Origin: a virus
DNA: 64,000 nucleotides
Reading direction: 5' to 3' (one strand)
IMG/VR virus record: IMGVR_UViG_3300028844_006119
Location: 64,001 to 128,000 of that record
A model generated the notes under the pieces. The model saw only the letters and a program-made list of their open reading frames with translations. It searched no databases and was not told the origin of the DNA. How positions within the stretch are numbered: the first letter of the stretch is position 1; every line of letters begins with the position of its first letter. This document shows, one piece after another, positions 4,699 through 63,449 of the stretch. A program made the translations under genes and the position numbers.

Positions 4699-4964
4699 CT
4701 GTTCAACTCCTGTCGAAAGGCTCTCATTGGCTTTACTGAGAGTAGGAGCATCCTAACCTTCGACGTCGTCCCGTGGACAGGGTCTCGTAGCGTTTTCGGA
4801 CGCATAGCTGAGCGCAGACGGAAGAGGGACTTGAAAGCTACTTCCTCCTGTCTGGTCAACGCTTCTCTTATGACGTTGTTCTGCGTGTCCATGAACAAGC
4901 GCACCGCGTTGCGCGGCATGCCCGTCCTCTTAGCGATCTCTCGCTCCATCTCCTTATCCGTCAT
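4677..4964 (-). CDS. HU/IHF-like DNA-binding protein
   Basis: MTDKEMEREIAKRTG...IREAL...EEVAFKSLF...RDPVHG...KPMRAFRQELN follows the HU fold pattern. Confidence 0.8.
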   Translation of the reverse strand: MTDKEMEREIAKRTGMPRNAVRLFMDTQNNVIREALTRQEEVAFKSLFRLRSAMRPKTLRDPVHGTTSKVRMLLLSVKPMRAFRQELNRWTSTQS

Positions 4965-7610: not shown

Positions 7611-7656
7611 GCGAGGTGTAGGAAGACTTAGAGCCTTCCTACACCCCGCTTATGAC
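7611..7656 (-). promoter_or_regulatory. GTCATAA motif followed by an 11-bp hairpin upstream of polA
   Basis: TTATGAC at 7650-7656 on the + strand; stem GGTGTAGGAAG/CTTCCTACACC at 7615-7645. Confidence 0.55.
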
Positions 7657-14679: not shown

Positions 14680-14710
14680 GGGCTATGCCTCCTATTAAGT
14701 GCCAAATTTG

Positions 14711-14717
14711 TTATGAC
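14711..14717 (-). promoter_or_regulatory. GTCATAA candidate phage promoter
   Basis: Repeated motif, 32 nt upstream of the start at 14679. Confidence 0.6.
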
Positions 14718-16727: not shown

Positions 16728-17689
16728 TTTCCAGCGGCTCCCTCTTTTTCTTCAGCGACGAAATACAAAAGTGTGCAGGCATGCCTGCGCCTCAGCAAGC
16801 GCAGCAACCTGAGAAGAAACAGAGCTTTCTCTCCAGGAACAAGATGACTTTGGGAGCCGGCGCTCTTGCCGCAGGGATGATCCTAAAGAACCCCCAGGCA
16901 GCCTCCAAGTACCTGGGCCAAGTGAAGCAGATGGTCACTAACCCTAAGGCAGCCCTTCAGCGTGGCTGGAGATCTGGCTCATCCAACATCACCGGCAAGG
17001 TCCCCGGGGCCTCCGAGTCGGCGTCCAAGAGAGTCAGACTGTACAAGGACGTCTTAAGCTCGGCCGAGCAAGGCAAGCTTCAGTCCGTCAAATCCCTCGA
17101 CACTATTGGCGCGGGGGGAACTTCTGCGAGAGCTTCGGGCTGGGGAAGCGCGGGTAGGTCGTTCAGTAGAGCAGGACAAGAGCTAAAGATGTCCCCCGAT
17201 CTCACTAAGAGAGTGGGAGACATGCAAGCCAAGCTCAAGGCCGGAGAAGAAGTCTCAGAGCAAGCCTTGAAGGGCCTTTATGCTGAGATTCAGGGTGCTG
17301 GAAAGGGCCTTAAGATGAGGAAGGGCCTGTCGTACTATGCCCCTGGAGAGCGTACGATGATGACAGGTCTGGGCACAGGTCTGGGGGCAACGGCGGGCCT
17401 TGAGACCCACGATGCGGAAACAGGACGCAAGAGGGGCGTGGCGGAGCGAGTTGCTCGCGGGACTGTCGGTGCTGCGACTGGCACCGCGATGTCCTCCCTA
17501 TTCATGGGACGAGGCGCAAGGCTCAGCAGCAAGAACTTATTCACAGGAAATAGAGGCTCTCTGCTCAGCCAAAAGGGACTTCTGCCAGTCGCGGCAACGA
17601 CTCCCCTACTGGTGGGTACTGAGGCCGCTGGGGAGGTCGCGGGGAAGGGCGGAGAGCTGGCCGACAGAGCCTTTGGACAGAAATCATGA
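16724..17689 (+). CDS. Leader-bearing (FFFSDEIQKCA) basic, Gly-rich putative internal virion protein
   Basis: Shared leader motif, followed by Lys/Arg-rich sequence with Gly-rich hydrophobic segments. Confidence 0.65.
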   Translation: MISSGSLFFFSDEIQKCAGMPAPQQAQQPEKKQSFLSRNKMTLGAGALAAGMILKNPQAASKYLGQVKQMVTNPKAALQRGWRSGSSNITGKVPGASESASKRVRLYKDVLSSAEQGKLQSVKSLDTIGAGGTSARASGWGSAGRSFSRAGQELKMSPDLTKRVGDMQAKLKAGEEVSEQALKGLYAEIQGAGKGLKMRKGLSYYAPGERTMMTGLGTGLGATAGLETHDAETGRKRGVAERVARGTVGAATGTAMSSLFMGRGARLSSKNLFTGNRGSLLSQKGLLPVAATTPLLVGTEAAGEVAGKGGELADRAFGQKS

Positions 17690-19788
17690 ACGTAGTTTCT
17701 AGCGAATCAAACCGATTCAACCCGCGCCCTGTCGACTATGAGGGTGGCCGGGGCTTCGGCATTCGCTACCCGTCCCCCTTCTTCGATGTCGCGCAGCAGT
17801 TTCTTCCGTCCGACGTACACCAGCTCCATCACTGGTGTCGGTACTACTTTCTGACCAACCCGGTTATCAACGCTGCCTGCTCCAAGATGGCGGAGTACCC
17901 CGTCACTCCTCTCGTCTTTGAGACGGAAGACCCCAAGCTGGTAGAGCTGGGCAAGTCCCTAGAAGATCAGCTAAAGCTGCGATCTTTTCAGGTTGAAGTC
18001 GGACTAGACTACTTTGTCTACGGAAATGCGTTCATCTCGCTGTTCTTCCCGTTTGAGAAGTACCTCCTCTGCCCGAAGTGCAAGGAGCGTTACCGCGCCA
18101 GCAAGAACCGCTTCAGATACAAGTGGCGGAGCGGTCGCTTCTATCTGAAGGAGTGCAAGTGCGGGTACCAGGGGTACGCGAAGCAGCAGGATGTCTACAT
18201 CCGCAGCGCGCGCGACATTCGCCTGGTTCGGTGGAATCCAGAGAACGTCAACATCAAGTACAACGAGATCACAGGTAAGGCGAAGTACTACTTCAAGCTG
18301 CCTCGAGCGATCGCCAACGATATCAAGTTGGGCGACGCGGACACGATCGAGACGCTACCCCTTGAGTTCCTAGAGGCTGCCCGTAAGAAGAAGTCCCTCC
18401 TGTTTACTCAGGACAACCTCTATCACTTGAAGCGTCCGACGATTGCCCAGAAGGATCAGGGCTGGGGCACTCCCCTGATCTACCCCTTGCTGAAGGACGC
18501 GTTCTACCTGCAGGTCATGAAGAAGGCGAACGAGGCGGTCCTCATGGAACACATCGTTCCTATGAGGATACTCTTCCCTGGGCAGAGCACGGGCGGGAAT
18601 GAGGGTCCATACGGATCCTATAACCTGAGCAACTGGAAAAAGAAGGTAGACGCTGAGATCAACATGTGGCGTCGGGACCACAACTACATCCCAGTTCTGC
18701 CCGTGAACGTCGGGTTCCAGCAGATCGGCGGACAGGGCCGAGCCCTTCTGATGTACCAGGAGATGCGTCTTCTTTCGGAGCAGATGCTCGCGGGCGCAGG
18801 AATCCCTGTCGAGTTCATCTTCGGCGGGCTTCAGTGGAGCGGGTCCAGCACCTCCCTCCGGGCTCTGGAGAACATGTTCCTGGGGTACAACAAGCAGCGC
18901 CATGAGCTCGTAAACAAGTTCATCGTGGAGAAGGTTTGCTCCTTCATGCGTTGGCCCAAGATCTCGGTGCGCTTTGACAAGTTCAAGATGGCCGACGATC
19001 TGCAGAGAAGCATGTTCTACCTGCAGCTCAACCAGGCGCAGAAGGTCAGTGACCGCAGGCTGCTTGAGGAGATCGGAGAGAACTTCGATCTCGAGAACGA
19101 TCGCATGATGTCCGAGCTAAAGAAGAACCTTCAGACGCAGCGCACCATGCAGGTCGCCGGTGCTGACGTTCAGGGAGAGATCCAGCTTCGCACTTCCCGG
19201 TACCAGGCTAAGTCTCAGTCCCTAATGGCGAAGGCACAGGCCGAAGTCCAGATGGAGATGCAGAAGAAGCAGCTGGAGATGCAGCAGCAGATGCAGCAGC
19301 AGGTGCAGCAGGGTGCAAACCCTCAACAGGTTCAGGCGGCGCAGCAGGCGGCGCAGCAACAACAAGGCGCAGCAGCACAGGCCGCCCCGCAAGGTCAGGC
19401 TCAGCAGGGCGGAGGTCAGGCTCAGCAGACTCCCGGTATGCCGGACGGGGCCACCGCGTACGATGAGAACGCGAAGTCTCCTAACGACACGGGGATGCCC
19501 GCAGCTATGGCGGGTATGACTTCTCAGATCCAGCAGGGAGCTGGAGGAGTAGACCTTCGATACATCGCCCAGAGAGCCGCGGCGTTCTTGAAAACGGTCA
19601 AGAAGGAGCAGGGCCCTGAGGCCATGTACAAGTCTTTGGCCGAGATGCAAACCGGCAATCCGAATCTCTATCAGCTGGTTGTCCAGCTATTGAACGATAC
19701 AGGATCTAAGGAAAATCCCCAGAACGCCCAGGCGGCCCCCAAGCCTAACGGGAATCCGCAAGCGGATATTTCCCGTCAGGTGGGGTAG
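17686..19788 (+). CDS. Portal protein with Zn-ribbon insertion and Gln-rich C-terminal tail
   Basis: YYFLTNPVINAA, DYFVYGNAF, WNPENV, LYHLKR, GWGTPLI and GIPVEFI occur in the order expected for phage portals. Confidence 0.75.
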   Translation: MNVVSSESNRFNPRPVDYEGGRGFGIRYPSPFFDVAQQFLPSDVHQLHHWCRYYFLTNPVINAACSKMAEYPVTPLVFETEDPKLVELGKSLEDQLKLRSFQVEVGLDYFVYGNAFISLFFPFEKYLLCPKCKERYRASKNRFRYKWRSGRFYLKECKCGYQGYAKQQDVYIRSARDIRLVRWNPENVNIKYNEITGKAKYYFKLPRAIANDIKLGDADTIETLPLEFLEAARKKKSLLFTQDNLYHLKRPTIAQKDQGWGTPLIYPLLKDAFYLQVMKKANEAVLMEHIVPMRILFPGQSTGGNEGPYGSYNLSNWKKKVDAEINMWRRDHNYIPVLPVNVGFQQIGGQGRALLMYQEMRLLSEQMLAGAGIPVEFIFGGLQWSGSSTSLRALENMFLGYNKQRHELVNKFIVEKVCSFMRWPKISVRFDKFKMADDLQRSMFYLQLNQAQKVSDRRLLEEIGENFDLENDRMMSELKKNLQTQRTMQVAGADVQGEIQLRTSRYQAKSQSLMAKAQAEVQMEMQKKQLEMQQQMQQQVQQGANPQQVQAAQQAAQQQQGAAAQAAPQGQAQQGGGQAQQTPGMPDGATAYDENAKSPNDTGMPAAMAGMTSQIQQGAGGVDLRYIAQRAAAFLKTVKKEQGPEAMYKSLAEMQTGNPNLYQLVVQLLNDTGSKENPQNAQAAPKPNGNPQADISRQVG

Positions 19789-20048
19789 CGCAGCATGGGG
19801 AGATCTATGCCCGCAGGGAACTTCAGCGGATCCCCGGCCCCTGAGGGGTACAGGTACGCAAGGATTTCCCTGGAGTTGTCTATTAGGCATCTTTCGTGGA
19901 AGATCGGCTCTTGGTCTCCTGAGTCGAAGTAGGTCTCCGATACGGTGTACCTCTTTGGCCTCCTCCCCACCTCATACCTGGACAGGCTGACCATCTTCTC
20001 ATTCTCTACGATCTGGGCCGTGCACCAGTCGCACTTGAATCTATCCAT
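19776..20048 (-). CDS. Small Cys/His protein
   Basis: CDWC...HERC; overlaps the upstream ORF. Confidence 0.6.
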   Translation of the reverse strand: MDRFKCDWCTAQIVENEKMVSLSRYEVGRRPKRYTVSETYFDSGDQEPIFHERCLIDNSREILAYLYPSGAGDPLKFPAGIDLPMLRYPT

Positions 20049-20352
20049 CGACGATGGCCAGCATCAGTACTCCGCTCTCATACCCGCAGATTTCGCATTT
20101 ACCGTTGCCGTAGTAAGGCTGTAGGATGAGACCCTCGGTGCAGGTCGAGCAGACCCACAAGTAGTCCCCAAACGCATTATCGATAAGAGAGCATGTCTCA
20201 CACGCCACATCACTACAGAGGCTTTCGGCCAAGGGACAGTACGCCGTATGTATCGGCTCGTCCCTCTGCTTCTTCTCTGTCGGGACCGCCGGGGCATCTA
20301 AAGAGAAGCCGGAGGGCCGGGCAAAAAGCCCGGCCCTCCTCTTCTTACTCAC
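20041..20352 (-). CDS. Small Cys-rich Zn-binding protein
   Basis: CPL...C...CETC...CSTC...CEIC. Confidence 0.6.
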   Translation of the reverse strand: MSKKRRAGLFARPSGFSLDAPAVPTEKKQRDEPIHTAYCPLAESLCSDVACETCSLIDNAFGDYLWVCSTCTEGLILQPYYGNGKCEICGYESGVLMLAIVDG

Positions 20353-20452
20353 CGTCGAGCTCGTCTAGCTCAGCGAGCGCGTCCTTCAGGACGCGCTCGC
20401 TCTGCTGCATCAGCCCCACCACGAAGGCGAGGCCGAATAGCCCCACGACCAC
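20345..20452 (-). CDS. 35-aa single-TM peptide, not in the ORF track
   Basis: GGGAGG RBS, GTG start overlapping the upstream TAG; MVVGLFGLAFVVGLMQQSERVLKDALAELDELDGE. Confidence 0.5.
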   Translation of the reverse strand: MVVGLFGLAFVVGLMQQSERVLKDALAELDELDGE

Positions 20453-20535
20453 TACGCCTCCCGAAAGAGGCGGTCAACCTCTTCTTGTGGGGTCTCGGGG
20501 GTCGGGGTCTCAGTCTCGTCAGCTGTATAGATCAT
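20452..20535 (-). CDS. 27-aa acidic peptide, not in the ORF track
   Basis: AAGGAG RBS; MIYTADETETPTPETPQEEVDRLFREA; first ORF after a GTCATAA motif. Confidence 0.5.
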   Translation of the reverse strand: MIYTADETETPTPETPQEEVDRLFREA

Positions 20536-20546
20536 TCTTCACTCCT

Positions 20547-20584
20547 TTTTGGTCGGGCTATGTCCCGACCAAAAGAGTTATGAC
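20547..20584 (-). promoter_or_regulatory. GTCATAA motif plus 11-bp hairpin
   Basis: TTATGAC at 20578-20584; TTTTGGTCGGG/CCCGACCAAAA at 20547-20574. Confidence 0.6.
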
Positions 20585-20605
20585 TCGTAAACAATAAGGA
20601 TTCAC

Positions 20606-23600
20606 ATGGCAAACCTGGCTCCAGGGGACGCATACCGCCTCCTCGAAGAAAGAACCAAAGAAGCCATCAAGAGTCACTTCCCGGTCGAAGGCCGAGAAAA
20701 CAGACTCGAGTTGGTAGATATTTCCACGGATGAGGATGCCTCCTCTGCGTCTGGAAAGCACCACAGCTACAACCACACGTCTCAGACGGACGCAAAGCTC
20801 CATGACAGAACATGGGGTCCCAACATCGTAGGGACGTTCCGGCTCGTAAACATGGAGACGGGTAAGGTCGTAGACCAGGGGAAGCGCACCCTGGGCCAGC
20901 TGCCTAAGATCACCAGTCGGTACAGCTACATCGTTGAGGGGAACGAACGTCAAGTCGACAGCGTCTTCCGCCTTAACCCCGGCGCCTATCACGTAGAGGC
21001 CGACAACGGAGATCTTCTTGCGAAGTGGAACGTCGCCGCAGGATCCAAGGTTGGTTCGTTCAAGATCTCCATTGAGCGTAAGCATCCCAAGAAACTGGGG
21101 GCCATGTACCTGATTGTGAAGAGTGGCACGCAGTCTACTCGCAAGATCCCGGCGTACGGAATCCTCTCCGCCCTGGGAGTATCCGACCCTGCTATGCGCA
21201 AGGCGTGGGGAGAATCCGTATTCGAGGTAAACCGCAGGATCTCCAAGCCCAACGACCTTCTAAACTTTCACGAAGCGGTGGAGAAGCGCCGAGCGGGCAA
21301 GGATAAGTACGAGACGCCTACCCTCTCCGAGGCCCGCAAGTTTGCGAAGGAAGTCTTCGAGGGCGCAGAAGTAAACCCCGATACGATGCTTGCTACGCTG
21401 GGCAAGAAGTTCACCAACATCTCTGGGGACGCTCTCCTGGCCTCCTCGGCCAAGGTGGTGGGAATTAGCAAGGGGACCGCGGAGCCTGACGACAGACAGT
21501 CTCTCTCCAACAAGCGCCTCTTCGGGATGGAAGATTTCATCCACGAGGAGATCTCTAAGGGATCGTCTCGGTTCGAGATGCAGAAGAAGATCCGGAACAA
21601 CCTCGATCGTAAGGGCAAGATCTCAGACATTCTTCCGGCTGCGTCCGTGGGGTATGGGAGGCTGATCACGCGCAAGTTCAAGGCTGCCCAACTTCCGACC
21701 CAGACAAATCCCCTTCAGTTCGTGTCTAACCACACGAAGACGACCATTCTCGGTCAGGCGTTTGGCGGAATTAAGGGAGACAATGTCAACCTTGATCGAG
21801 ACAAGCTGATCAATCCCTCTCACTTGGGGCTGCTTGATCCTCTGCAGACACCAGAGAACACCTCTACCGGCGTCTCGCTGCACATCCCAATCGGGGCCAA
21901 TAAGAAAGGTCAGCAGCTTTACACAAAAGTCCTGAACGTAAAGACCGGGAAGTTCGAGAATAAAAACGCAGCGGAGATGGAGAAGGCCGTCGTTGCATAC
22001 CCCGACCAGGTGAAAATCACCCGCACGAAGACCGGAGCCACAGTCCGGCCCCTGCACCCCGACGTTGTCGTCTATGACTCAGACCGCAGCACGGCCAAGA
22101 GGCCCTGGAAGGACGTCCAGTACGTTCTTCCCAACGCAAAGACACTATTCTCGGTTAGCGCAAACATGATCCCGTTCGTTCAGAACGACAACGGGAACCG
22201 AGCCATGATGGCCGCTAAGCACCAGGAGCAAGCAGTCTCTCTGAAAGACCGAGAAGCCCCGCTGGTTCAGGCTGAATTTGCGGGAGGGGTCTCATTCGAC
22301 CAGATGATCGGCAAGTTGAACTCTACTACCGCTAGTGTGGCCGGAACTGTGTCGAGAATCACCAAGGATTCTGTTTACATAAAGGGCGCGGCAGGAAAAG
22401 CGGTGTCCCACCCGATCTACAACCACCATCCCCTCAACGGCACGAAGCACATGATGCATTCGACTCCGGTTGTGAAGGTGGGAGACAAGGTAAAGGTTGG
22501 ACAGCTCATCGCCGACTCTAACTTCACCAAGGACGGCACCCTATCCTTGGGTACGAATCTTCGCGTCGGGTATCTGCCGTACAAGGGCTACAACTTTGAG
22601 GACGGGACCGTCATCTCGGAGACTGCCGCCAAGAAGTTGGTGTCCACCCATCTCCACATCGAAGAAGCGGAGATGTTCGCCAACGTAGTCGTAAACAGGA
22701 AGCTGTGGAGAAACTTCGCTGGGGCCAACAAGGCCACGGCAGAAGTGATGAGCAAGCTGGACGAGGATGGCGTCATCAAGGAGGGAGCCAAGGTAGTTCC
22801 CGACGATGTGTTGATCACTCGGCTGGTCAAGGCGGAGATGACTCGAGAGAACCAGGACGTCAAGAGGTCCCTGAAGAAGGCTATCCGGGACTACAAAGAC
22901 GCCGCAGTGGTCTGGAAGCATGAGTACGGCGGCACTGTCGTTCGAGTCGTCAAGACTGCGAAGAAGATCCAGGTTCATATCCGCACTGAGCAGACAATGG
23001 AGCCCGGAGATAAGCTGTCGGGGCGTCACGGTAACAAGGGAATCATCACCAAGATCCTGCCTGACGATATGATGCCCAAGGATAAGAGCGGGAAGCCCGT
23101 CCATGTCCTGATGAGCCCCGCAGGCGTCCCATCCCGTATGAATGTCGGGCAGGTCCTGGAGACGGCTGCAAGTAAGATTGCCCGCAAGACGGGAAAGTCG
23201 TACAAGATCGAGAACTTCGATGCCTCCGTTGATTACTCCCAGAAGATTAAGGATGAGCTCAAGAAGCACAATCTTTCCGATACGGAGGAGCTTTTCGATC
23301 CCGAAACCGGAGAGTCTCTCGGGCAGATCTTTACGGGTGAGCAGTACATGCTCAAGCTGGACCACCAGGCCGAAAAGAAGGTGTCTGCCCGATCTGGAGG
23401 ATCTGGGTATGCCTATCGGCCCACCGGCGAGGCAATCTCCGGTTCGGGCATCGGGAAGGGCGGGCAACGAATTGGTGGCCTAGACACCTACGCTCTGCTG
23501 GCACACGGAGCCAAGAGAAATCTGATGGAGATGCAGACCTACAAGTCTGACTCCGAGCAGGCCCGGGATGTCTGGATTCGGGTGATGCAGGGACAGCGTC

Positions 23601-26600
23601 CGCCTCCCCCCAAGGTCCCTACCTCGATGGAGCACTTCAAGAAGTACCTACGGGCTACGGGGGTCTATGCCGAGGAGACTGGCGGTGTGTACTCCCTGTC
23701 TCCCATGACGGATGCTCAGACCCTAGGGCAGAGTAAAGGCGCGCTCGTAGCGGCGGATAAGACGCTGGTGGCAAAGGGGATGCTCACCAAGGAAGAAAAG
23801 GGCGGCCTGTTTGATAGGGGCAAGACCGGAGGCATGGAGGGCAAATTCTGGTCCCACATCGACATGAAGACCCGGATGCCCAACCCAATGTTTGAGACCG
23901 CAATCCAGTCTCTGCTCGGCCTAAAAAAGGCGGAGTTTGAAAAGCTGGTCTCCGAAAACGGAGCCGTGGGGAAGAAGTCCGGGTTCCAGATCATTGAGGA
24001 GCGTCTGCGCGCCATCAAGGTTCCCTCCGAGCTAAAGAAGGCGGAAGAGGAGCTGAAGACCGCTAAGAAGGCGGACCTCAACAAGAAGTACAAGAAGGTC
24101 CGGTATCTTCGCGCGCTGAAGGAGCTCAAGACCTCTCCGGTAGACGCCTATACGAACCAGCATCTCCCAGTGCTGCCTCCCATCTTGAGGCCGGTAAAGA
24201 TTGGATACGACGGCACACAGATGATTGATGCCGCGAATCAGTACTACGCCATGATCGGCCAGATGACCAAGCAGGTAGAGCAGGGGAAGAAGGAGGGGCT
24301 GCCGAAGGCCGACATCTTCAAGAGAGAAGCGCAGCTATACGACCTGGTCCGTGCGTTGCGCCTGAATGGCATGACTCAGGAAGGCAGGGAGCTTCCCAGT
24401 CTGATGGACAAGATGACGGGCTCGAAGCCCAAACACTCATTCTTTCAGCAGGGTGTTCTGTCGAAGCGGCAGGACTTGTCGGGCCGGACGGTCGTTACCC
24501 CAGAGCCCGCATTGAAGATGGACCAGGTGGGCATCCCTGTCGATATGGCGATGGAGACGTACAAGCCGTTCGTCATCAGAGAGCTGTGGCGTCGTATGGG
24601 AATCGCCAAGAGCCCTGGCGAAGCAAGACGCATGATCAAGAAGAACCACCCCTCCGCCAAGAAAGCGTTGGAGAGGGTGATTACTCAGCGTCCAGTAATC
24701 ATGAAGAGAGACCCTGCGCTTCATATGTTTTCTACTATGGCCTTCAAGCCAGTTCTTGTGCCGGGGAAGTCGATCAAGATCCACCCACTTGTGTGCGGCG
24801 GCTTCAACGCGGACTTCGATGGCGACACCATGGCCATGTATGTGCCCGTGACTGAGGAAGCTGCGGAGGAGGCCCTGGAGAAGATGCTCCCGTCTAAGAA
24901 CCTGTTTTCCCCCACACACGGGGGCCTCATGTTGACCCCCAGCCAGGATGCCGTTCTCGGCATCTACCAGGCTACAAAGTGGGGCAAGAAGGTTCCTGGA
25001 ATCCTTACGGAGGAGCAGGCGCTTCAGCAGCTGAAGAACGGAAAGTTGAAGTCTGACAACGTCATCACGGTCAAGGGCCACAAGAAGCCTACGACTGCGG
25101 GAAGACTGCGGATCAACAAGACCCTGCCCGGCAGCGTAAAGAATGATCCCGAGCTTCTATACGATCCCAAATTCCGCATGGCCAAGGGCGCTATGAAGGG
25201 ATTCGCAACTCGAGTAGCCCAATCCGATCCGGATGAGTTCTCCGGCATGATCGACGGATGGAAGGAGTTGGGGTTCACGCTGTCATATAAGAACGGTAGT
25301 TCGTTCAGCCTGAATGATTTTCACGACGGTAAGACCATCCGAGACAACGTCCTGAAGAAGTACAAGAAGGAAGAGAATGTGATTCGCAAGTCTGGTATTT
25401 CTCGTAAAAAGAAGGACCAGAAGATTATCGCCCTGTACCAAAAAGCAGGCGAGGAACTCAAGGTTATCGGGCAGGCCCACTACAAGGCTAAAAAAGACAA
25501 CCGTATGTGGGAGTGGGCTGAAAGCGGTGCGCGAAGCAACTGGGGCCAGTTCGGTCAGTTGGTCATGGGGCCCATGCTTGTGCAGAACCCCTCCAAGGAG
25601 TTTGTGCCTGTACCGCTCACTACCTCGTTTGGGGAGGGGCTCCCGATCTCTCAGTACTGGGCAGCGCTGCATGGCGCCCGAAAGGGAACCCTGGATCGCG
25701 CAGCAGGAACTAGAGACCCCGGAGCGCTCACCAAGGAGTTGATCAACACAGTCATTGCGTACTCTGTGACCGACAAGGACTGTGGTACTTCCAAGGGCAC
25801 TCTGATGTCCGTCATGGCGAAGGACATCGAGGGCAGGTACCTGGCGCGCGAGGTGCCCCTGAAGAGCGGGGACAAACTGACCCGTGGAACCCTGGTCAGC
25901 TCGGCATTGTTGACCAGGATGAAGAACTCCGGCCCCCAGAAGGTCCTGGTGCGCTCCCCTCTTCACTGCCAGCAGGCAACGGGCATTTGCGCCACTTGCT
26001 ATGGGCTTAACGAGAGAGGAACTCTCTACAAAAAGGGAACCAACGTTGGCATCATTGCCGGCCATGCCCTCGGAGAGCCAGTCACTCAGATGCAGATGCG
26101 GACGTTCCACACGGGCGGCGCCGGAACCGACGGGCTGACGGATTACTTCCAGCAGGCAAAGGACCTCTTCAAGGTGCCCGAGAAGCTACGAGGTGCCGCT
26201 ACGTTGGCGGAGGTCACCGGCAGGGTAGATAAAATCGAGACGGATGCCCTTGGCGGTAAGAAGGTCACGATTGGCGGAAAGCTGCACGTTGTCCCCCACT
26301 CGACCCCACTCCTCCCGAAGATTAGGGTCGGGGCGGACGTGAAGAAGACAGACGCGCTCTCTGTTGGTCGGAAAAATCCGCACGACATCCTTCGGATCTC
26401 CAACAACATCCATGCTGTCCGCAATCACCTCACGACAGAGCTAGACTCTCTGTACGTAGAGACTACGGGGAACGAGAGGCGGAGGAACATCGAGACGGTG
26501 ATCCGTGCGATGACCGATGTTGCGCAGGTGACCGAAAGCTCTGAGCACGAGAACCTGCTCAATGGGCAGATGATGTCTCTTTCCCGGATTGAGAACAGGA

Positions 26601-26944
26601 ACAAAGAGCTGAAGAAGTTGGGACTCCCCACCATCCAGCACAAGCCTCTGCTGAAGCCTATGGACAAAGTCCCGCTTTCCGGTAAAGAAGACTGGATGGC
26701 GCGACTAAACTTCCAGAGGCTTAAGGACACCCTTATCGAGGGCGGGGCACAGAACTGGAAGTCAGATATCCAGGGTCACCCCATCCCAGGCCTGGCGCAT
26801 GGTGCGGCGTTTGGACTGCAAGCCCCAAAGACCGCAGCCATAAGCTCCCCTTTCCCCAAGCCCCCCAAACCTGTTAAACTTCCGGCACCTGTGCCTGCCG
26901 CCCCGCAGGGCATCTTCGGGTCCTTCTTTGGAGCAAAGTCATGA
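20606..26944 (+). CDS. DNA-directed RNA polymerase, fused beta/beta-prime single chain
   Basis: Beta motifs: TPE, DNGNRAMM, GYNFED, GDKLSGRHGNKG, PSRMNVGQ, YMLKLDH, GGQRIG. Beta-prime motifs: KRQDLSGRTV, RDPALH, NADFDGD (24806-24826), HGARKG bridge helix, RSPLHC..ICATCYG, GEPVTQMQMRTFHTGG. Confidence 0.97.
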   Translation: MANLAPGDAYRLLEERTKEAIKSHFPVEGRENRLELVDISTDEDASSASGKHHSYNHTSQTDAKLHDRTWGPNIVGTFRLVNMETGKVVDQGKRTLGQLPKITSRYSYIVEGNERQVDSVFRLNPGAYHVEADNGDLLAKWNVAAGSKVGSFKISIERKHPKKLGAMYLIVKSGTQSTRKIPAYGILSALGVSDPAMRKAWGESVFEVNRRISKPNDLLNFHEAVEKRRAGKDKYETPTLSEARKFAKEVFEGAEVNPDTMLATLGKKFTNISGDALLASSAKVVGISKGTAEPDDRQSLSNKRLFGMEDFIHEEISKGSSRFEMQKKIRNNLDRKGKISDILPAASVGYGRLITRKFKAAQLPTQTNPLQFVSNHTKTTILGQAFGGIKGDNVNLDRDKLINPSHLGLLDPLQTPENTSTGVSLHIPIGANKKGQQLYTKVLNVKTGKFENKNAAEMEKAVVAYPDQVKITRTKTGATVRPLHPDVVVYDSDRSTAKRPWKDVQYVLPNAKTLFSVSANMIPFVQNDNGNRAMMAAKHQEQAVSLKDREAPLVQAEFAGGVSFDQMIGKLNSTTASVAGTVSRITKDSVYIKGAAGKAVSHPIYNHHPLNGTKHMMHSTPVVKVGDKVKVGQLIADSNFTKDGTLSLGTNLRVGYLPYKGYNFEDGTVISETAAKKLVSTHLHIEEAEMFANVVVNRKLWRNFAGANKATAEVMSKLDEDGVIKEGAKVVPDDVLITRLVKAEMTRENQDVKRSLKKAIRDYKDAAVVWKHEYGGTVVRVVKTAKKIQVHIRTEQTMEPGDKLSGRHGNKGIITKILPDDMMPKDKSGKPVHVLMSPAGVPSRMNVGQVLETAASKIARKTGKSYKIENFDASVDYSQKIKDELKKHNLSDTEELFDPETGESLGQIFTGEQYMLKLDHQAEKKVSARSGGSGYAYRPTGEAISGSGIGKGGQRIGGLDTYALLAHGAKRNLMEMQTYKSDSEQARDVWIRVMQGQRPPPPKVPTSMEHFKKYLRATGVYAEETGGVYSLSPMTDAQTLGQSKGALVAADKTLVAKGMLTKEEKGGLFDRGKTGGMEGKFWSHIDMKTRMPNPMFETAIQSLLGLKKAEFEKLVSENGAVGKKSGFQIIEERLRAIKVPSELKKAEEELKTAKKADLNKKYKKVRYLRALKELKTSPVDAYTNQHLPVLPPILRPVKIGYDGTQMIDAANQYYAMIGQMTKQVEQGKKEGLPKADIFKREAQLYDLVRALRLNGMTQEGRELPSLMDKMTGSKPKHSFFQQGVLSKRQDLSGRTVVTPEPALKMDQVGIPVDMAMETYKPFVIRELWRRMGIAKSPGEARRMIKKNHPSAKKALERVITQRPVIMKRDPALHMFSTMAFKPVLVPGKSIKIHPLVCGGFNADFDGDTMAMYVPVTEEAAEEALEKMLPSKNLFSPTHGGLMLTPSQDAVLGIYQATKWGKKVPGILTEEQALQQLKNGKLKSDNVITVKGHKKPTTAGRLRINKTLPGSVKNDPELLYDPKFRMAKGAMKGFATRVAQSDPDEFSGMIDGWKELGFTLSYKNGSSFSLNDFHDGKTIRDNVLKKYKKEENVIRKSGISRKKKDQKIIALYQKAGEELKVIGQAHYKAKKDNRMWEWAESGARSNWGQFGQLVMGPMLVQNPSKEFVPVPLTTSFGEGLPISQYWAALHGARKGTLDRAAGTRDPGALTKELINTVIAYSVTDKDCGTSKGTLMSVMAKDIEGRYLAREVPLKSGDKLTRGTLVSSALLTRMKNSGPQKVLVRSPLHCQQATGICATCYGLNERGTLYKKGTNVGIIAGHALGEPVTQMQMRTFHTGGAGTDGLTDYFQQAKDLFKVPEKLRGAATLAEVTGRVDKIETDALGGKKVTIGGKLHVVPHSTPLLPKIRVGADVKKTDALSVGRKNPHDILRISNNIHAVRNHLTTELDSLYVETTGNERRRNIETVIRAMTDVAQVTESSEHENLLNGQMMSLSRIENRNKELKKLGLPTIQHKPLLKPMDKVPLSGKEDWMARLNFQRLKDTLIEGGAQNWKSDIQGHPIPGLAHGAAFGLQAPKTAAISSPFPKPPKPVKLPAPVPAAPQGIFGSFFGAKS

Positions 26945-27363
26945 ACAAGATCGCCGCATACGAAATCGCACTCGAGAGAATCGAACTTGAGAAGCGGGCT
27001 GACTCCCTGGTGGAGGCCTACGGCACCAGTGAGGGCTACATGCCGGGTGCCTACCTTCAGGCGTTTGATCAGATCGAGAAGGAAGCCGGAATCCAGGCTA
27101 TCGCAAATATCGGGAGCCGCCTCTCAACAGCGGCGCGAGGCACCATTAAAGGGATGATGGGGAGCGGCGGGGCAGTAGTCCGAAAGGGCGGGAAGATGCA
27201 GCTTAGCAGGGGAGCCGGACTTGGGGACACGGCTAAGTACTACGGAGCTCGAGGCGTGCAGCGCGCGGGAAGATTCGCCATGCAGAATCCCGGCGCGACT
27301 GCAGCTGTTGGCGGGGTCGGAGGTGTCGGAGCTGCCGGCCTCGGGTACAAGGCTCTGAAGTAG
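26941..27363 (+). CDS. Leader-bearing (MNKIAAYE) protein with cationic glycine-zipper cargo
   Basis: Acidic N-terminal part ending in EKEA, then a basic part ending GGVGGVGAAGLGYK. Confidence 0.7.
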   Translation: MNKIAAYEIALERIELEKRADSLVEAYGTSEGYMPGAYLQAFDQIEKEAGIQAIANIGSRLSTAARGTIKGMMGSGGAVVRKGGKMQLSRGAGLGDTAKYYGARGVQRAGRFAMQNPGATAAVGGVGGVGAAGLGYKALK

Positions 27364-27364
27364 A

Positions 27365-28564
27365 ATGCCCGCACCCGTCTCCCCAGCAGCGCCTTCTCCG
27401 GCATTGATCCTCCAAGGGCGCATCTCTGAAGTAGATGCGCCCCGGTGGCTATGCAAGGTGCGGGTTGACGGGAGAGACGATGATGTGACCACGACCATCC
27501 CATCTGTGTACTCTCATCCGATGAACGGGGAGGGGATCCACTTCTTGCCGGAGGTTGGAGCGTTTTGCTACGTCTGCTTTAGCTCCGACAAGAAGACCAT
27601 CCCCTTCCTGCTTTCTGCTGGAGCCGCAACGGTGCCGAAGGATCGGTCTTCATCCGAAGGCCTTCCCGGGTCGATGGATATGTTCCGTCCCCTCCTGACC
27701 GCAGGGGACATTGCCCTTCTCACTAGAGACGGCAACGGCCTTACCCTGCGCAGAGGAGGAGTGACGGAACTCAAGGGCACGTCCCTGGCTAAGATCGTGT
27801 TCAACCCGACGATGAACCAGGTGTTCACCATCGCTGAGAACTACCGGGTCCAGACGTTTGGAGGATCTACTGAGTGGAAGAACCTCCGACGCGAGGAAAA
27901 CCCAGATGGCCAGGTCAGGACGCGGCTCTCTACTGTGGTCAAGGAGTACGCCACCTCCAAGGGCTACAGTGTCCGTCTCCAGATGGGTGCCACTGAGGGA
28001 GCGCCTGTTGCGCTTCAGGGCGACGATTCGGCAGAGAAAGCGCCGGACAAGGTGGTGGAAGAGTCGGAAGCTGTGACGCTCTCCGGTACAGGAGATACAT
28101 ACACGGTCACGGTGCCCAAGTCTGTTCCGCTGCTGGACAGCACTAGGGTTGTGGACTTCAGGATCTACGAGGACGAGACGGTCGCTGAAGATGCGCTAGA
28201 GGTAGTGATGAATCTCGGCATGGACCGAGAAGGAGACATCCAACTCGAGACCGATGGCGCTATGAAGATCGACGTGCCCAAGAAGTGGGTGGAGATTGTC
28301 GTTGGAGGCAGCACTCCGTTTATCAATACGGAAGCGGCAGGGGCGCAGAAGGTACTGGTAACTACTGGGACACAGGGCAACACTGAGCCGGTGATCAAGG
28401 GATTCGCATTCCTGTCAGATCTTGCGGCCTCTCTGACCGAGATTAAGACGGCCCTGAACGGGCTCGGCATTCCGACTGTCTCGACGGATGCCCTATTGGC
28501 AAACATCCTTACTTCTGTGGCGGACGGAGCTCCATATCTGTCTACTACTCTGGAGAGTGAATAA
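27365..28564 (+). CDS. Baseplate spike (gpV/gp5-like, OB-fold N-terminus)
   Basis: GRISEVD...CKVRV...GIHFLPEVGAFCYVCF, followed by beta-rich sequence. Confidence 0.65.
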   Translation: MPAPVSPAAPSPALILQGRISEVDAPRWLCKVRVDGRDDDVTTTIPSVYSHPMNGEGIHFLPEVGAFCYVCFSSDKKTIPFLLSAGAATVPKDRSSSEGLPGSMDMFRPLLTAGDIALLTRDGNGLTLRRGGVTELKGTSLAKIVFNPTMNQVFTIAENYRVQTFGGSTEWKNLRREENPDGQVRTRLSTVVKEYATSKGYSVRLQMGATEGAPVALQGDDSAEKAPDKVVEESEAVTLSGTGDTYTVTVPKSVPLLDSTRVVDFRIYEDETVAEDALEVVMNLGMDREGDIQLETDGAMKIDVPKKWVEIVVGGSTPFINTEAAGAQKVLVTTGTQGNTEPVIKGFAFLSDLAASLTEIKTALNGLGIPTVSTDALLANILTSVADGAPYLSTTLESE

Positions 28565-28797
28565 TGCCCCTCACCGGCACCGAAGATGCTCTCTCTGCTG
28601 CGATTAAGGCTAAGGTCCAGACTAATAACCCTGACTTTGCCAGTAAGATCGGGGATGATTGGGATTGGCTGTTTGACTCTATCGCCAAGGCGGTTGTAGA
28701 TCACGTCAGAGACAATATTTTGGTCGCCGGCACTACGGTTACGACGTGTGGTGCTGGTGCCGGTTCCGGTGTCTTCACCCACGTTTCCACTTCTTGA
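28564..28797 (+). CDS. Small protein, possibly the spike tip
   Basis: 77 aa, directly after the spike gene. Confidence 0.4.
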   Translation: MPLTGTEDALSAAIKAKVQTNNPDFASKIGDDWDWLFDSIAKAVVDHVRDNILVAGTTVTTCGAGAGSGVFTHVSTS

Positions 28798-35981: not shown

Positions 35982-36010
35982 TAGTGCCTCCTTTTTTGTT
36001 AGCAGAGGAC

Positions 36011-36017
36011 TTATGCC
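36011..36017 (-). promoter_or_regulatory. GGCATAA candidate phage promoter
   Basis: TTATGCC, 30 nt upstream of the start at 35981. Confidence 0.55.
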
Positions 36018-36046
36018 TTACAATGGTCCAAACTTTAGGAGGCCAG

Positions 36047-37771
36047 ATGGATAACTCTGAGCCCTGGGATTATGCTCCTCCCTCAGTCGACCCGGACTTG
36101 GAGCAGGCATACGAAGAGGAAACCGCGGACATCCGCCTCCCCGTGTTGCCGTCCCAGTTCATTGAGACTTCCGTCTTGATGCCAGATCCGCACACGCGGA
36201 GCCTCACCAACTTTTCCTTTGGCGAGAGAAAGTATCTTCGGGAGATCTACGACATCCGGGCTCCGAGAGTCCTTCTTATGTGCGGCAGGCAGGTTGAGAA
36301 AAGTACTACGCTGGGCAACAAGGCCCTTGCCTACTCGTGCCTCATTCCGCACTTCAAGATTCTCTATGTCTCTCCGTCTAGTACGCAGACCAAGGAGTTC
36401 TCCAAGACGAGACTGAAGGAGCCCCTCGAGACGTGCCCGGACCTGAAGACCTGGTTCCCGTCTCATTTGACGGACAACGTCTTCGAGAAGAAGGCCATCA
36501 ACCGGAGTCAGATCACTCTCCGGTATGCGTTCCTGAACGCCGATAGATGCCGTGGCCTCTCGGCAGACCTCATCTGCATGGACGAGTTTCAGGATCTGCT
36601 CCTGGACAACATTCCGGTCATCGAAGAGGCCGCCTCGCACAGCCCCTTCAAGTGGTTCATCTACAGTGGGACGCCTAAGTCCCTGGACAACCCCATCCAG
36701 CACTACTGGGATACCTACTCCACGCAGAACGAGTGGGTGGTTCCGTGTGATAGGCACGGCACCCCAAACAACCCAGGGTCGTGGCACTGGAACATCCTTG
36801 GGGAAAAGAACATCGGCATCAATGGGCTGATCTGCGACAAGTGCGGAAACCTCATCAAGCCCGACCACCCCATGTCTCAATGGGTGAAAACCGGAAATCC
36901 CAACCCCAAGTACGACACGTTTGAGGGGTACCGCATCCCCCAGCTGATGGTGCCCTGGATTGAGTGGTCGAACATCCTCACCAAGTACAACCAGTACCCC
37001 AGAGGTAAGTTCTACAATGAGGTTTTAGGCGCAAGCTTCGACTCTGGGCAGCGCCCACTGACTCGTCAGGATGTCTACGACAACTGCGACCCAGAGATGA
37101 GCATGTCTGTGGAGGGCGTTCAGAAGAACAAGACCGGAGCCACGCAGCTCTACGCCGGGATCGACTGGGGACAGGACAGCACAAACTCCTACACCATCGT
37201 CACCATCGGCGGATACATCGGCGGCAAGTTCAAGATTATCTTCGCGCACAGGTTCAGCGGCGCGGAATCTGAGCCCAAAGTCCAGATCGAGAAGATCAAG
37301 AAGCTCCTGGTCAGCTTCAATGTCGTTCGGGTAGGAGTTGACTATGGTGGAGGTTATTGGCCGAATGACGAGCTGCTGAGAAGCTTTGGCTCTCAGAGGA
37401 TTGTCAGGTACCAGTACTCCACCCCAAAGACGATGATGAAGTACGACTCGAACAAGGGCCGGTTCTTGATCCACCGGTCTGAAGTGATGAGTGCTGTGTT
37501 CAATGCGATCAAGCGTCGGTCGGTCTTTCGGTTCCCCAAGTGGCCTGAGTGGGGAACTCCTTTCGGGTCCGACATGCTGGCCATCTTCAGCGAGTACAAT
37601 GAGCGAAGTCGGAACACCGAGTACAAGAAGTCCCCTAATACGACGGATGATACGTTTCACGCGCTGGTGCTGTGCTTCTTGGCGTCGATGATAGACAACC
37701 CTCGACCCGACATCCTGGTTCCAAACCAGGCTATTGACCGCAGGCTAAACGATCTCGAAGATTACAGCTAA
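36047..37771 (+). CDS. terL: Terminase large subunit
   Basis: GRQVEKST Walker A-like motif, ICMDE Walker B, SGTP, Zn motif C..H..CDKC, nuclease GIDWG and DDTFHA; AGGAGG RBS. Confidence 0.9.
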   Translation: MDNSEPWDYAPPSVDPDLEQAYEEETADIRLPVLPSQFIETSVLMPDPHTRSLTNFSFGERKYLREIYDIRAPRVLLMCGRQVEKSTTLGNKALAYSCLIPHFKILYVSPSSTQTKEFSKTRLKEPLETCPDLKTWFPSHLTDNVFEKKAINRSQITLRYAFLNADRCRGLSADLICMDEFQDLLLDNIPVIEEAASHSPFKWFIYSGTPKSLDNPIQHYWDTYSTQNEWVVPCDRHGTPNNPGSWHWNILGEKNIGINGLICDKCGNLIKPDHPMSQWVKTGNPNPKYDTFEGYRIPQLMVPWIEWSNILTKYNQYPRGKFYNEVLGASFDSGQRPLTRQDVYDNCDPEMSMSVEGVQKNKTGATQLYAGIDWGQDSTNSYTIVTIGGYIGGKFKIIFAHRFSGAESEPKVQIEKIKKLLVSFNVVRVGVDYGGGYWPNDELLRSFGSQRIVRYQYSTPKTMMKYDSNKGRFLIHRSEVMSAVFNAIKRRSVFRFPKWPEWGTPFGSDMLAIFSEYNERSRNTEYKKSPNTTDDTFHALVLCFLASMIDNPRPDILVPNQAIDRRLNDLEDYS

Positions 37772-38224: not shown

Positions 38225-38262
38225 GCAGAGGAGTTAGATCCCCTCTGCTCAATGTTTATGAC
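38225..38262 (-). promoter_or_regulatory. GTCATAA motif plus 7-bp hairpin
   Basis: TTATGAC at 38256-38262; GCAGAGG/CCTCTGC. Confidence 0.55.
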
Positions 38263-38749: not shown

Positions 38750-38786
38750 GTGTTCTCCTTCGCTAAGGTAGTCCTCAACGAAAGTC

Positions 38787-39494
38787 TTATGCCGTGTTTT
38801 CTCCCCTTTTTAAGATCTTACGGAATAGGGCATCTGAGGTCGTAGAGGTCCCTACGTGCTGCCCCTCCAACTCCGGGGCGACGGCCCCCGCAAGCTCTCC
38901 GTAGATAAACGCGCTGATCCGCAACTTTCTTCGGGAGGATGCCAATATTTTGTGGAGCCCCTGCAGCTCCAGGGAAGCCGCATACTCTGGCCGAGTAACG
39001 ACAAACCCCATCATCATGGTGCAGAGCCGCAAGAATGTTCTCCAGGGGTGGATATCGGAGGTCTGCCCTGCCATCACTACGAAGTCATCCTCGGAGAGCC
39101 TGTCGAAGATCTCTACCCACGGAGCGATCTCCGTCGTCTCCCAGGCTCCTCTCTTCGTGTGGGCCACCGCAAACGTATACAGCTCTGAAGAGTAGGAGGG
39201 GCTCAGCCCCAGTGCCGCATCCTTCGCGTCTAAGATTCTAAGGACGACCTCCATGTGCGACTCCAGCCGGCGCACCTTAGAGCGCAGGCGAATCAGCTCC
39301 TGCCTGGAGACGACAGGGGACGCGGAGTCCATGTCTTCTTTCAGGTCCTGGACCTCCTCCGGGCGAAGGTATACGCTCCGGCCCTTCTTCTCCTTGGACA
39401 GCAAGCCTTTTTTGATATAGTTTCTGACGGTCCTGTCGGTTACTGAGAGGAACCTAGCTGCGTCCTGTAGCGTCATCATGTTATCGTGACTCAT
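38787..39494 (-). CDS. MerR/excisionase-type HTH DNA-binding protein
   Basis: MTLQDAARFLSVTDRTVRNYIKKGLL...VYLRPEEV, then a coiled coil. Confidence 0.8.
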   Translation of the reverse strand: MSHDNMMTLQDAARFLSVTDRTVRNYIKKGLLSKEKKGRSVYLRPEEVQDLKEDMDSASPVVSRQELIRLRSKVRRLESHMEVVLRILDAKDAALGLSPSYSSELYTFAVAHTKRGAWETTEIAPWVEIFDRLSEDDFVVMAGQTSDIHPWRTFLRLCTMMMGFVVTRPEYAASLELQGLHKILASSRRKLRISAFIYGELAGAVAPELEGQHVGTSTTSDALFRKILKRGENTA

Positions 39495-46531: not shown

Positions 46532-47668
46532 ATGGATTATTCCGCTGAAATGGTGAATTCGGGCTTCATTGAGCGCCTCGAGACTGAGGGTTCCACGAAG
46601 ACCGCCGCCGCCTCTCTCAACTACATCAAGGATCGCCTGCGCGAGTCCAGCTTTGCCGACATGATCGTTCCGAACGAGCGTGTTGTGCGTGGCGACTTGC
46701 AGCGCAGCACCCAGCACGACACCCTCGTGAAGATCGTCGACATCGAGCCGGGTTCCCGCGCGATGGCCGTCAACTTCCGTGGTCAGCCTACCGCTGAGTA
46801 CGTGTCTGGTAAGCGCTACGCAATCGGCTTCTTCACCATCTCGAGCCTCAAGTTCGAAATCGTGGAGCAGGAGCTGATGGCATACGAGATGCCCGTCACC
46901 CGCATCATCGAGGAGAACAGCCTCAAGGACATGGTCGAGGTCAAGGATCGCGAGTTCCTGAACCACGTCGAGTCCTGCATCGATGCAATGCAGAGCGAGG
47001 GTGGTATCACCACCTTCAACACCTCGACTTGGACAGCTGGTTCCCAGTTCTCGAAGATCAAGGGCTCTCTGGCTCTGCAGCAGACCACCGACAACTTCAA
47101 CGTCCAGGCAATCCAGCGGACTGACATTGTGGAGCTCAAGAAGCTTCTCAAGCGTCAGGTGCTTGATAGCTCCGGTAACGTGGTTCGTCAGGGTCGTCTT
47201 CGTCCCGCGCTGATGCTCATGACTGAGTCCGACGCTGACGACTTCGATCAGTGGACTCACGAGGACTACGGTGATCGTCTCCAGAGCGAAACCGCTCTCG
47301 ACGGCTACACCTACAACAAGGTCCTCGGTCTGCGCATCGTCCGTACCATCAAGAACGACATCCTGCGTGAGGGCAACGTTTACGTGTTCACCGCACCGGA
47401 GTTCTTCGGCCGGAACTACACGCTGAACGATGTCAAGTTCTACATCGATAAGATTGCGAACCGCATCTTCTGGCAGGCATGGATGGACGTGGGCATGGGC
47501 TTCGGCAACATCGCCTCGGTCGTCAAGCTTGAGCTCTACTCCGGTAGTGTCAGTGGCACGCCGGATTCCGGCTTTGCTGCAGCGATGCCGACTGACGAAG
47601 AGAACCTGGGTGGCCAGAACAACAAGGCCGCTGATGGTCTGACCTACCCGAGCCTCAACATCTTCTAG
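46532..47668 (+). CDS. Major capsid protein (HK97-fold expected)
   Basis: 378 aa; follows the protease/scaffold genes; AGGAG RBS; strongly biased codons; followed by a terminator. Confidence 0.75.
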   Translation: MDYSAEMVNSGFIERLETEGSTKTAAASLNYIKDRLRESSFADMIVPNERVVRGDLQRSTQHDTLVKIVDIEPGSRAMAVNFRGQPTAEYVSGKRYAIGFFTISSLKFEIVEQELMAYEMPVTRIIEENSLKDMVEVKDREFLNHVESCIDAMQSEGGITTFNTSTWTAGSQFSKIKGSLALQQTTDNFNVQAIQRTDIVELKKLLKRQVLDSSGNVVRQGRLRPALMLMTESDADDFDQWTHEDYGDRLQSETALDGYTYNKVLGLRIVRTIKNDILREGNVYVFTAPEFFGRNYTLNDVKFYIDKIANRIFWQAWMDVGMGFGNIASVVKLELYSGSVSGTPDSGFAAAMPTDEENLGGQNNKAADGLTYPSLNIF

Positions 47669-47698
47669 TCTATCGCTAGAAAGAGTTGACTCTTTTCA

Positions 47699-47739
47699 GG
47701 GCCCCGGTTCCCATAAGGGGGCTGGGGCCCTTTCGTTTT
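47699..47739 (+). terminator. Intrinsic terminator after the capsid gene
   Basis: GGGCCCCGGTTCCC-ATAA-GGGGGCTGGGGCCC followed by TTTCGTTTT. Confidence 0.8.
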
Positions 47740-47758
47740 CTCAGAGGAATTCATCGCT

Positions 47759-58334: not shown

Positions 58335-58344
58335 AGGAAGAGAC

Positions 58345-58587: not shown

Positions 58588-58594
58588 GTAAGCG

Positions 58595-60318: not shown

Positions 60319-60331
60319 AAAAGTTCCACCT

Positions 60332-63415: not shown

Positions 63416-63449
63416 CTCCGAGTGCTATGTGGTTCGTTCCACAAAACTC

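Follow-up and report, generated by a model that had tools for sequence, protein, structure and literature searches.

A one-chain, bacterial-type RNA polymerase core encoded behind the portal gene of an uncultured marine tailed phage and plausibly carried in its virion

Within the 64,000-nucleotide stretch of viral DNA analyzed here (the window; bases 64001–128000 of the 142-kb IMG/VR record IMGVR_UViG_3300028844_006119, judged about 77% complete), the plus strand carries at positions 20606–26944 a single unbroken open reading frame (ORF) which, according to ORF call and translation, codes for a protein of 2112 amino acids (aa) and 232 kDa. As judged from its sequence, the product is a catalytically intact bacterial-type RNA polymerase (RNAP) core in which beta and beta-prime form one chain. 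On the same grounds the enzyme is assigned to a lineage that has already been described, namely that of Salmonella phage Arash and of the mReC phages, the multisubunit-RNAP-encoding Caudovirales from metagenomes (Weinheimer & Aylward 2020, PMC7481178). The nearest relatives among isolates are Arash (gp206 and gp216) and the Vibrio phages D69, D181 and D148, all of the same polymerase family with about 30% identity over the whole length, and their beta-prime is split near residue 1500; the fused form was not found among the cultured phages of the isolate collection.

Both large subunits in one chain

An earlier note on this DNA, made from the letters and a list of ORFs, had described one uninterrupted 2112-aa ORF holding the catalytic motifs of both large subunits, and Pfam domains, matches to the Protein Data Bank (PDB) and motif positions agree on this. 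RNA_pol_Rpb2_6 (residues 611–932, E 1e-65), Rpb1_2 (residues 1287–1425, E 4e-30), Rpb1_5 and Rpb1_3 scored above the curated Pfam cut-offs, and Rpb2_7 gave a partial match of 26.6 bits, as compared to a cut-off of 32.1. The closest solved structures are those of bacterial beta-prime (E 1e-113) and bacterial beta (E 1e-86). The chain is also much shorter than a bacterial beta plus beta-prime, as the note had stated: it falls 23% short of the 2749 aa of the Salmonella subunits and about 12% short of the Staphylococcus open frames of 1185 and 1215 aa (~2400 aa; frame lengths from stop to stop).

Domain boundaries were derived from a family hidden Markov model (HMM) built from 26 members, whose hmmsearch local domains were matched to RpoB and RpoC of Salmonella. 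The local domains were preferred to MAFFT --add and glocal hmmalign, both of which set the termini of these two proteins in the wrong place. The members of the 26-sequence alignment are 38–82% identical, and most of their active-site residues are invariant. The beta part comprises residues 1 to ~1024 (20606–23677, plus strand). The HMM matched RpoB stretches 50–235, 424–931 and 1048–1339 and RpoC stretches 166–948 and 1130–1348, with no counterpart for RpoB 236–423 and 932–1047 and with RpoC 949–1129 skipped; we read the unmatched segments as three large insertions that are apparently peculiar to the E. coli lineage.

The active-site motif of beta, GDKLSGRHGNKG (residues 801–812; 23006–23041, plus strand), was located by alignment and motif position. 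G801, D802, K803, R807, N810, K811 and G812 are invariant in the 26 sequences, G806, H808 and G809 nearly so, and the conserved lysines (GDK...GRHGNKG) together with the Rpb2_6 domain mark the double-psi barrel of beta. The barrel of beta-prime is represented by the catalytic motif NADFDGD (residues 1401–1407; 24806–24826, plus strand), of which A1402, D1403, D1405, G1406 and D1407 are invariant and F1404 is nearly so in the family alignment, by the bridge helix, and by the trigger loop GEPVTQMQMRTFHTGG (residues 1823–1838; 26072–26119, plus strand), which is devoid of the SI3 insertion, as indicated by the jump of the HMM over RpoC 949–1129.

At the junction of the two parts (residues 1019–1087; 23660–23866, plus strand), beta aligns up to residue 1339 of 1342 and thus stops no more than three residues short of the end of E. 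coli beta (...GVYAEE, at residue ~1024 of the phage chain); from there the chain passes directly into the equivalent of beta-prime from about its residue 14. As aligned, beta and beta-prime are therefore fused head to tail, essentially without a linker. The junction segment includes the site of the N-terminal zinc finger of beta-prime (E. coli C70, C72, C85 and C88), which is missing: a short Gly-rich loop, GGLFDRGKTGGMEGKFWSHIDM, occupies its position, and the 2112-aa chain has no Cys before residue 1397. The corresponding region is likewise Cys-free in the relative P0059 and in Arash gp206. Of the five Cys residues present in all, C1397 lies shortly before the catalytic motif. The other four, C1726, C1788, C1795 and C1798 (25781–26005, plus strand), align with the C814/C888/C895/C898 region of the E. 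coli protein and make up a retained second zinc site.

In the segment aligned to the clamp helices (24236–24292, plus strand), NQYYAMIGQMTKQVEQGKK stands in place of E. coli NDLYRRVINRNNRLKRLLD, with the basic residues replaced. The clamp helices are the docking site of sigma region 2 in bacteria. Key residues are also changed in the rifampicin-pocket segment (21683–21754, plus strand), which could be aligned without gaps between the NPL and LG anchors; in E. coli numbering, D516 is replaced by T, H526 by N, S531 by T and F514 by L, and the family consensus has the same changes. Since D516, H526 and S531 are established rifampicin-resistance positions, the enzyme is predicted to be insensitive to rifampicin.

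A sigma factor of the phage and the lack of alpha and omega genes

The earlier note had recognized no alpha, omega or sigma gene. For the window this is correct, as judged by Pfam profile searches, but the same genome encodes a sigma factor 30 kb outside it. This sigma-70-family gene (G000:C1:32958-33791) was detected by a Pfam Sigma70_r3 match (E 2e-8), and its product is homologous to gp10 of Arash (E 1e-19); homologues were found in both isolates, Arash and D69, and in 7 of the 8 relatives whose completeness is 90% or more. Two weak Sigma70_r4 matches were rejected, leaving only the third candidate as sigma. One of them is an HTH_17/MerR-type DNA-binding protein encoded between the terminase and the head genes (38787–39494, minus strand), the other a ParB_N/KorB-like protein encoded just past the end of the window (G000:C1:127965-128969). 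Profiles for alpha (PF01000, PF01193) and omega (PF01192) gave no match in the genome, and PF01000 gave none in the eight near-complete relatives, Arash and D69. Only one polymerase set was found in the record and in each related genome searched. From this gene content we infer that promoter specificity is provided by the sigma-70-family factor of the phage, and that the enzyme probably works without phage-encoded alpha or omega.

Packaging in the virion and the origin of early transcription

The polymerase gene follows the portal protein gene (17686–19788, plus strand; blastp to Arash portal gp204, E 1e-91, with a counterpart also in D69) in a co-oriented block which also holds the genes of the large terminase (35984–37771), the major capsid protein (46532–47668) and the tail, all on the plus strand, so that the co-orientation with structural genes claimed in the earlier note is confirmed. 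A position in the structural, late block would be expected of the gene for a virion-packaged RNAP. A portal gene was found in 16 of the 16 relatives searched, and in about 10 of these 16 long IMG/VR relatives it lies on the same strand within about 5 kb upstream of the polymerase gene.

The suggestion of the earlier note that the enzyme may be packaged is plausible in view of the virion proteome of Arash, which was determined by mass spectrometry after purification in a sucrose gradient (PMC10585845). Gp206, which corresponds to beta plus the N-terminal part of beta-prime, ranks first with 3516 spectra, 128 unique peptides and 100% coverage, and Gp216 is represented by 1210 spectra, 40 unique peptides and 89% coverage; for comparison, the capsid protein yielded 1333 spectra and 30 unique peptides (PMC10585845). 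The sigma factor Gp10 was found in the same preparation with 467 spectra, 24 unique peptides and 100% coverage (PMC10585845). By analogy, these data support packaging for the family, though they do not prove it.

We therefore favor, as reasonably probable in its entirety, a working model in which the one-chain core acts together with the sigma factor of the phage. In line with the late synthesis and virion delivery proposed in the earlier note, the polymerase would be made together with the head proteins and packed into the capsid along with sigma. Entering the host with the DNA, it would initiate early transcription that is insensitive to rifampicin, after which newly made copies would run the remaining transcription programme.

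Several observations weigh against this model. In about 4 of the 16 relatives the portal gene is far from the polymerase gene. In the present phage, a hairpin of 12 pairs, 11 of them G-C, which resembles a two-way terminator (20311–20339), and a minus-strand gene cassette separate the polymerase gene from the portal operon and insulate it, so that it could be timed separately. The Arash list of 116 "virion" proteins includes primase, helicases and ribonucleotide reductase; purification was by sucrose gradient only, and the authors themselves allow for carry-over of abundant intracellular proteins (PMC10585845). Moreover, the virion evidence comes from a split homologue of 30% identity, the relatives with the fused form are uncultured, and the record is only about 77% complete.

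The hairpin, the cassette and the Arash protein list also speak for the alternative that the polymerase is not packaged but made after infection from a promoter of its own behind the hairpin, to act only inside the cell as a middle or late enzyme, while the host polymerase transcribes the early genes; T7 RNAP and the non-virion enzyme of phiKZ would be comparable cases. The polymerase signal in Arash could then be carry-over, as the plainly non-structural enzymes on the virion list may be (PMC10585845). The polymerase also has no N-terminal leader, and its N-terminus is part of the conserved family fold. We regard this alternative as possible but not favored, given that relatives of 30–45% identity still have the gene behind the portal gene in the head block, that the Arash polymerase yielded 128 unique peptides and the most spectra among the proteins named in the text (PMC10585845), and that a promoter-like motif preceding minus-strand non-structural genes (see below) is not used on the polymerase strand.

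A second alternative concerns the composition of the enzyme, and is compatible with a packaged as well as with an exclusively intracellular polymerase. The chain might recruit the alpha dimer of the host, perhaps also omega, for assembly or activity, as the fused RpoBC of Helicobacter does, and the term minimal single-chain RNAP would then be overstated. Engineered and natural fusions of beta and beta-prime in bacteria still use alpha, and the phage core is close to the bacterial enzymes, with about 30% identity and with beta aligning almost to its end. In addition, the absence of alpha and omega is derived from Pfam profile searches only, which leaves room for the use of host alpha. We nevertheless consider this alternative doubtful, as no alpha gene was found in the eight near-complete relatives or the two isolates, and as a packaged enzyme would require host alpha within the capsid; other phage multisubunit polymerases also lack alpha and do not stably bind host subunits (PMC13282480).

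The C-terminal tail

The chain ends as given in the earlier note, with ...FGLQAPKTAA followed by a Pro-rich stretch and GIFGSFFGAKS (tail at 26819–26941, plus strand). The C-terminus could be anchored in 102 relatives. In 32 of them the tail is long, with a median of 42 aa and about 20% Pro, and the linkers of these tails are hypervariable and do not align. The extreme end, in contrast to the variable linker, is conserved in character: at least two aromatic residues occur among the last 12 in 30 of the 32 long tails (e.g., GIFGSFFG, FSFFGK, GFFSFL). Tyr is the last residue in 51 of the 70 forms with a short tail. The conservation of the aromatic end implies that selection acts on the extreme C-terminus, as would be expected of a docking motif on a tether rather than of a propeptide that is discarded. 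The tail is thus presumably a flexible Pro-rich tether presenting an aromatic end that docks on some partner, with capsid, scaffold or portal proteins as the leading guess, and in the working model it would not be removed at APKTAA.

The note had instead proposed a cleavable tail, which would be a propeptide cut at APKTAA by the prohead protease after packaging. The tail does start right behind the conserved end of beta-prime and does contain K-T-A-A. Yet K-x-A occurs in the protein at chance frequency (17, as compared to 17.1 expected from composition), as does K-x-A-[ASG] (4 and 3.9, respectively); P0122, which belongs to the same 90%-identity cluster, has KTT at this position, and the site is missing from P0003 and others; the far end, which would be discarded, is the aromatic-rich part; and Gp206 of Arash was covered to 100% by peptides (PMC10585845). 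The proposal is therefore not supported, and cleavage at this site is unlikely.

Two other proposals for the chain ends were rejected. Binding of a sliding clamp through the PIP-box-like QGIFGSFF, as in T4 late transcription, is unlikely, with the Gln not conserved and no clamp gene found; binding to a host clamp is kept only as a remote possibility. The sequence LLEERTKEA, considered as an N-terminal leader, lies in a helix that belongs to the beta fold and is conserved throughout the family, whose more distant members lack the KEA.

A more far-reaching version of the working model would combine an alpha- and omega-free chain plus sigma with loading into the capsid through the aromatic peptide, similar to the cargo of HK97-fold encapsulins, threading through the tail, independence from the host RNAP, and an ancestral one-chain state. 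As part of this version, the one-chain state may have been selected because it avoids re-assembly of subunits after ejection. All of these parts holding jointly is unlikely.

Distribution and phylogeny of the family

A protein search returned 452 matches at E ≤ 0.001, of which the best 120 were examined. These 120 proteins are 37–82% identical to the phage enzyme, mostly 2020–2120 aa long, and encoded on contigs of up to 215 kb; among the matches listed, the same enzyme is present in more than 100 protein clusters. In IMG/VR, 246 loci carry relatives of the polymerase, and among 24 loci examined, 16 have the fused and six a split form, while two are interrupted by in-frame stops. Near-identical DNA was found in marine metagenomes from at least four independent studies other than the likely source. 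The enzyme is widespread in marine metagenomes. A scan of 185,579 species genomes yielded no relative of the polymerase, and hence no clue to a host or prophage.

The phylogenetic comparison with cellular RNAPs for which the earlier note had called was made with FastTree (LG+gamma; 1375 columns) for 50 phage and three bacterial sequences, the latter serving as outgroups from two phyla. All phage enzymes form one clade apart from the three bacterial sequences (support 1.0), and the stem leading to it has a length of 1.06 substitutions per site. All eight split forms constitute one clade (support 1.0) that is nested among the fused forms, suggesting that the one-chain state is probably ancestral and the split derived; deeper nodes have support values of 0.81 and 0.55, and with three outgroups no claim on deep placement is made. 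An origin of the gene by recent capture of a host rpoBC, by contamination with bacterial DNA or by chimeric assembly has a negligible probability, as nothing beyond a general likeness to bacterial RNAP speaks for it, whereas the GC content of the polymerase region matches that of its surroundings, phage portal and head genes flank it, none of the species genomes scanned contains a match, the phage clade sits on a long, fully supported stem, the same junction is conserved across the family, and the near-identical DNA comes from independent marine studies.

Some relatives deviate in gene structure. In P0034, P0038, P0041, P0042, P0073, P0083, P0086, P0090, P0095 and P0097, the protein is lengthened to 2400–3370 aa by domains of the intein, LAGLIDADG or homing-endonuclease type that the polymerase gene has taken up. 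The polymerase match of L044 (G004, a 210-kb record that is 100% complete) is broken by three in-frame TGA codons, and in L029 the frame is broken into two ORFs of 603 and 1030 aa; both phages may read TGA as a residue. In the split form of L048 (G009), the first polymerase gene (112029–117191, plus strand) and the gene of the C-terminal part of beta-prime (58249–60183, minus strand) are about 52 kb apart on opposite strands, so the halves need not be linked.

Comparison with known polymerases

Arash resembles the present phage in the gene order portal, small gene, polymerase, in the gp10-type sigma factor and in the lack of alpha. It differs in that its beta-prime is divided between two genes, and in lacking a long Pro-rich tail. 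In Helicobacter and Wolinella, the C-terminus of beta is joined to the N-terminus of beta-prime in one ORF (RpoBC). These are ordinary cellular enzymes with alpha, omega and zinc finger, whereas the phage protein falls into a separate clade, and in its beta-prime part the zinc finger and the initial ~13 residues have been lost.

The two-barrel polymerases of phiKZ and AR9 also lack alpha and omega, and one of their sets enters the host from the virion to transcribe the early genes; however, they consist of four to five polypeptides, occur in two paralogous sets, are very divergent and use no sigma-70-family factor, as opposed to the one chain, single set, closeness to bacterial enzymes and bona fide sigma found here. 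The crAss-like phage phi14:2 (gp66) and N4 (vRNAP) have very large single-chain polymerases that reach the host as part of the virion. The N4 enzyme is T7-like, with an unrelated fold. The crAss-like gp66 is sigma-independent. It is too divergent for the HMMs of cellular beta and beta-prime that were used in the mReC study (PMC7481178). A 2026 review on jumbo phages describes phage multisubunit polymerases as lacking homologues of alpha, sigma and omega, and phage sigma factors as working with the host polymerase (PMC13282480); judging from gene content, the present lineage combines a multisubunit polymerase and a sigma factor of its own, a combination that this review does not appear to cover.

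The mReC phages (PMC7481178) are, like the present one, known from uncultured tailed-phage contigs in IMG/VR, and encode beta and beta-prime that can be aligned to the cellular subunits and form a clade apart from cells; the polymerase described here, on a tailed-phage contig and in a clade apart from the only three bacterial outgroups used, conforms to this. The mReC markers PF07068 (capsid) and PF03237 (terminase) were not matched, the capsid protein giving no Pfam match and the terminase matching PF05876. In the mReC study these markers were found in only 8 and 31 of 97 contigs, respectively (PMC7481178). In the text searched, beta and beta-prime are treated as two subunits, "fused" and "fusion" are used for crAssphage only, and neither "sigma" nor "virion" nor "packaged" appears (PMC7481178). 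A statement of the one-chain architecture and its likely ancestral status was not met with in the related papers of the searchable literature, and no biochemical or structural study of the family was found there.

Genomic neighborhood

The neighbors of the polymerase gene were named by blastp to Arash. The large terminase is related to Arash gp1 (E 2e-48) and contains the Pfam domain GpA_ATPase (PF05876), the major capsid protein is related to Arash gp226 (E 4e-25), and several further virion proteins, all encoded on the plus strand, were identified by Arash homology. Ten neighboring proteins had no PHROG match, and their only Pfam match was a weak one to Phage_base_V. It concerns a protein of 399 aa (27365–28564) encoded two genes downstream of the polymerase; the match to this spike OB domain (E 3e-4) is below the cut-off, and the protein is conserved in relatives at 28–38% identity. 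The gene between the two (26941–27363, plus strand; 140 aa) overlaps with its start the polymerase stop codon in an ATGA, in keeping with the overlap reported in the earlier note, and has a homologue of 50% identity at the same position in the relative L010. A relative with 66% identity has the same gene order, in which the head genes are followed by portal, small cassette, polymerase and the genes of the 140-aa and 399-aa proteins; one with 41% identity has it as well, but with a ribonucleotide reductase inserted. In another relative (G001), the open frame of the portal is 1953 aa long and the two portal matches lie 4 kb apart, suggesting an insertion.

The minus-strand cassette upstream of the polymerase gene (19776–20535) comprises two small Cys-rich, zinc-ribbon-like ORFs (19776–20048 and 20041–20352) and two peptides, one hydrophobic (35 aa) and one acidic (27 aa). 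Both Cys-rich ORFs are conserved, and L010 has a homologue of each in the corresponding location (E 3e-14 and 1e-17, respectively). A plus-strand ORF at 20193–20597 (134 aa, rich in Ser, Pro and Arg) is antisense to these conserved small ORFs and probably spurious. Downstream of the capsid gene, at 47680–47760, a strong GC hairpin with a T-run (GGGCCCCGG...CTGGGGCCC TTTCGTTTT) has the appearance of a typical terminator after a highly expressed gene.

Promoter-like motifs

No match to a sigma-70-type promoter was found in 19600–28700, as compared to 3.1 expected. The motif G[GT]CATAA occurs in 19 minus-strand copies but only one plus-strand copy across the 142-kb record, often with an A-tract 12–14 nt upstream, and those copies for which the spacing was worked out lie 34–82 nt upstream of minus-strand ORFs. 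The minus-strand copies within the window are at 4867–4874, 7649–7656, 14710–14717, 20577–20584, 36010–36017, 38255–38262, 38786–38793 and 63449–63456, and the sole plus-strand copy is at 60314–60321. With 9 copies, as compared to 5.1 ± 2.4 expected, the number in the window is not beyond chance, and the signal consists in strand bias and placement rather than in the window count. The copy at 20577–20584, GTCATAAC, is located in the 70-nt gap that precedes the polymerase start, and points away from the polymerase gene. The motif may mark early or middle leftward transcription units; the polymerase gene and the structural genes are both on the motif-free plus strand, which lends weak support to their co-regulation. 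An element AAAGAGTT..GACTC, present before the polymerase gene and after the capsid gene, was rejected as a late promoter, there being only two copies, the first of which is the reverse complement of the leftward GTCATAAC motif.

Significance

If the working model is true, the family would possess the smallest natural bacterial-type RNA polymerase, consisting of one chain plus one sigma factor, without alpha, omega or the zinc finger. Such an enzyme would open a direct test of the old question of whether folding and initiation by a bacterial core are possible in the absence of the alpha scaffold. A fourth independent solution would also be represented by it to virion-delivered transcription, beside those of N4, phiKZ and the crAss-like phages, and the only one of them that keeps a true sigma factor.

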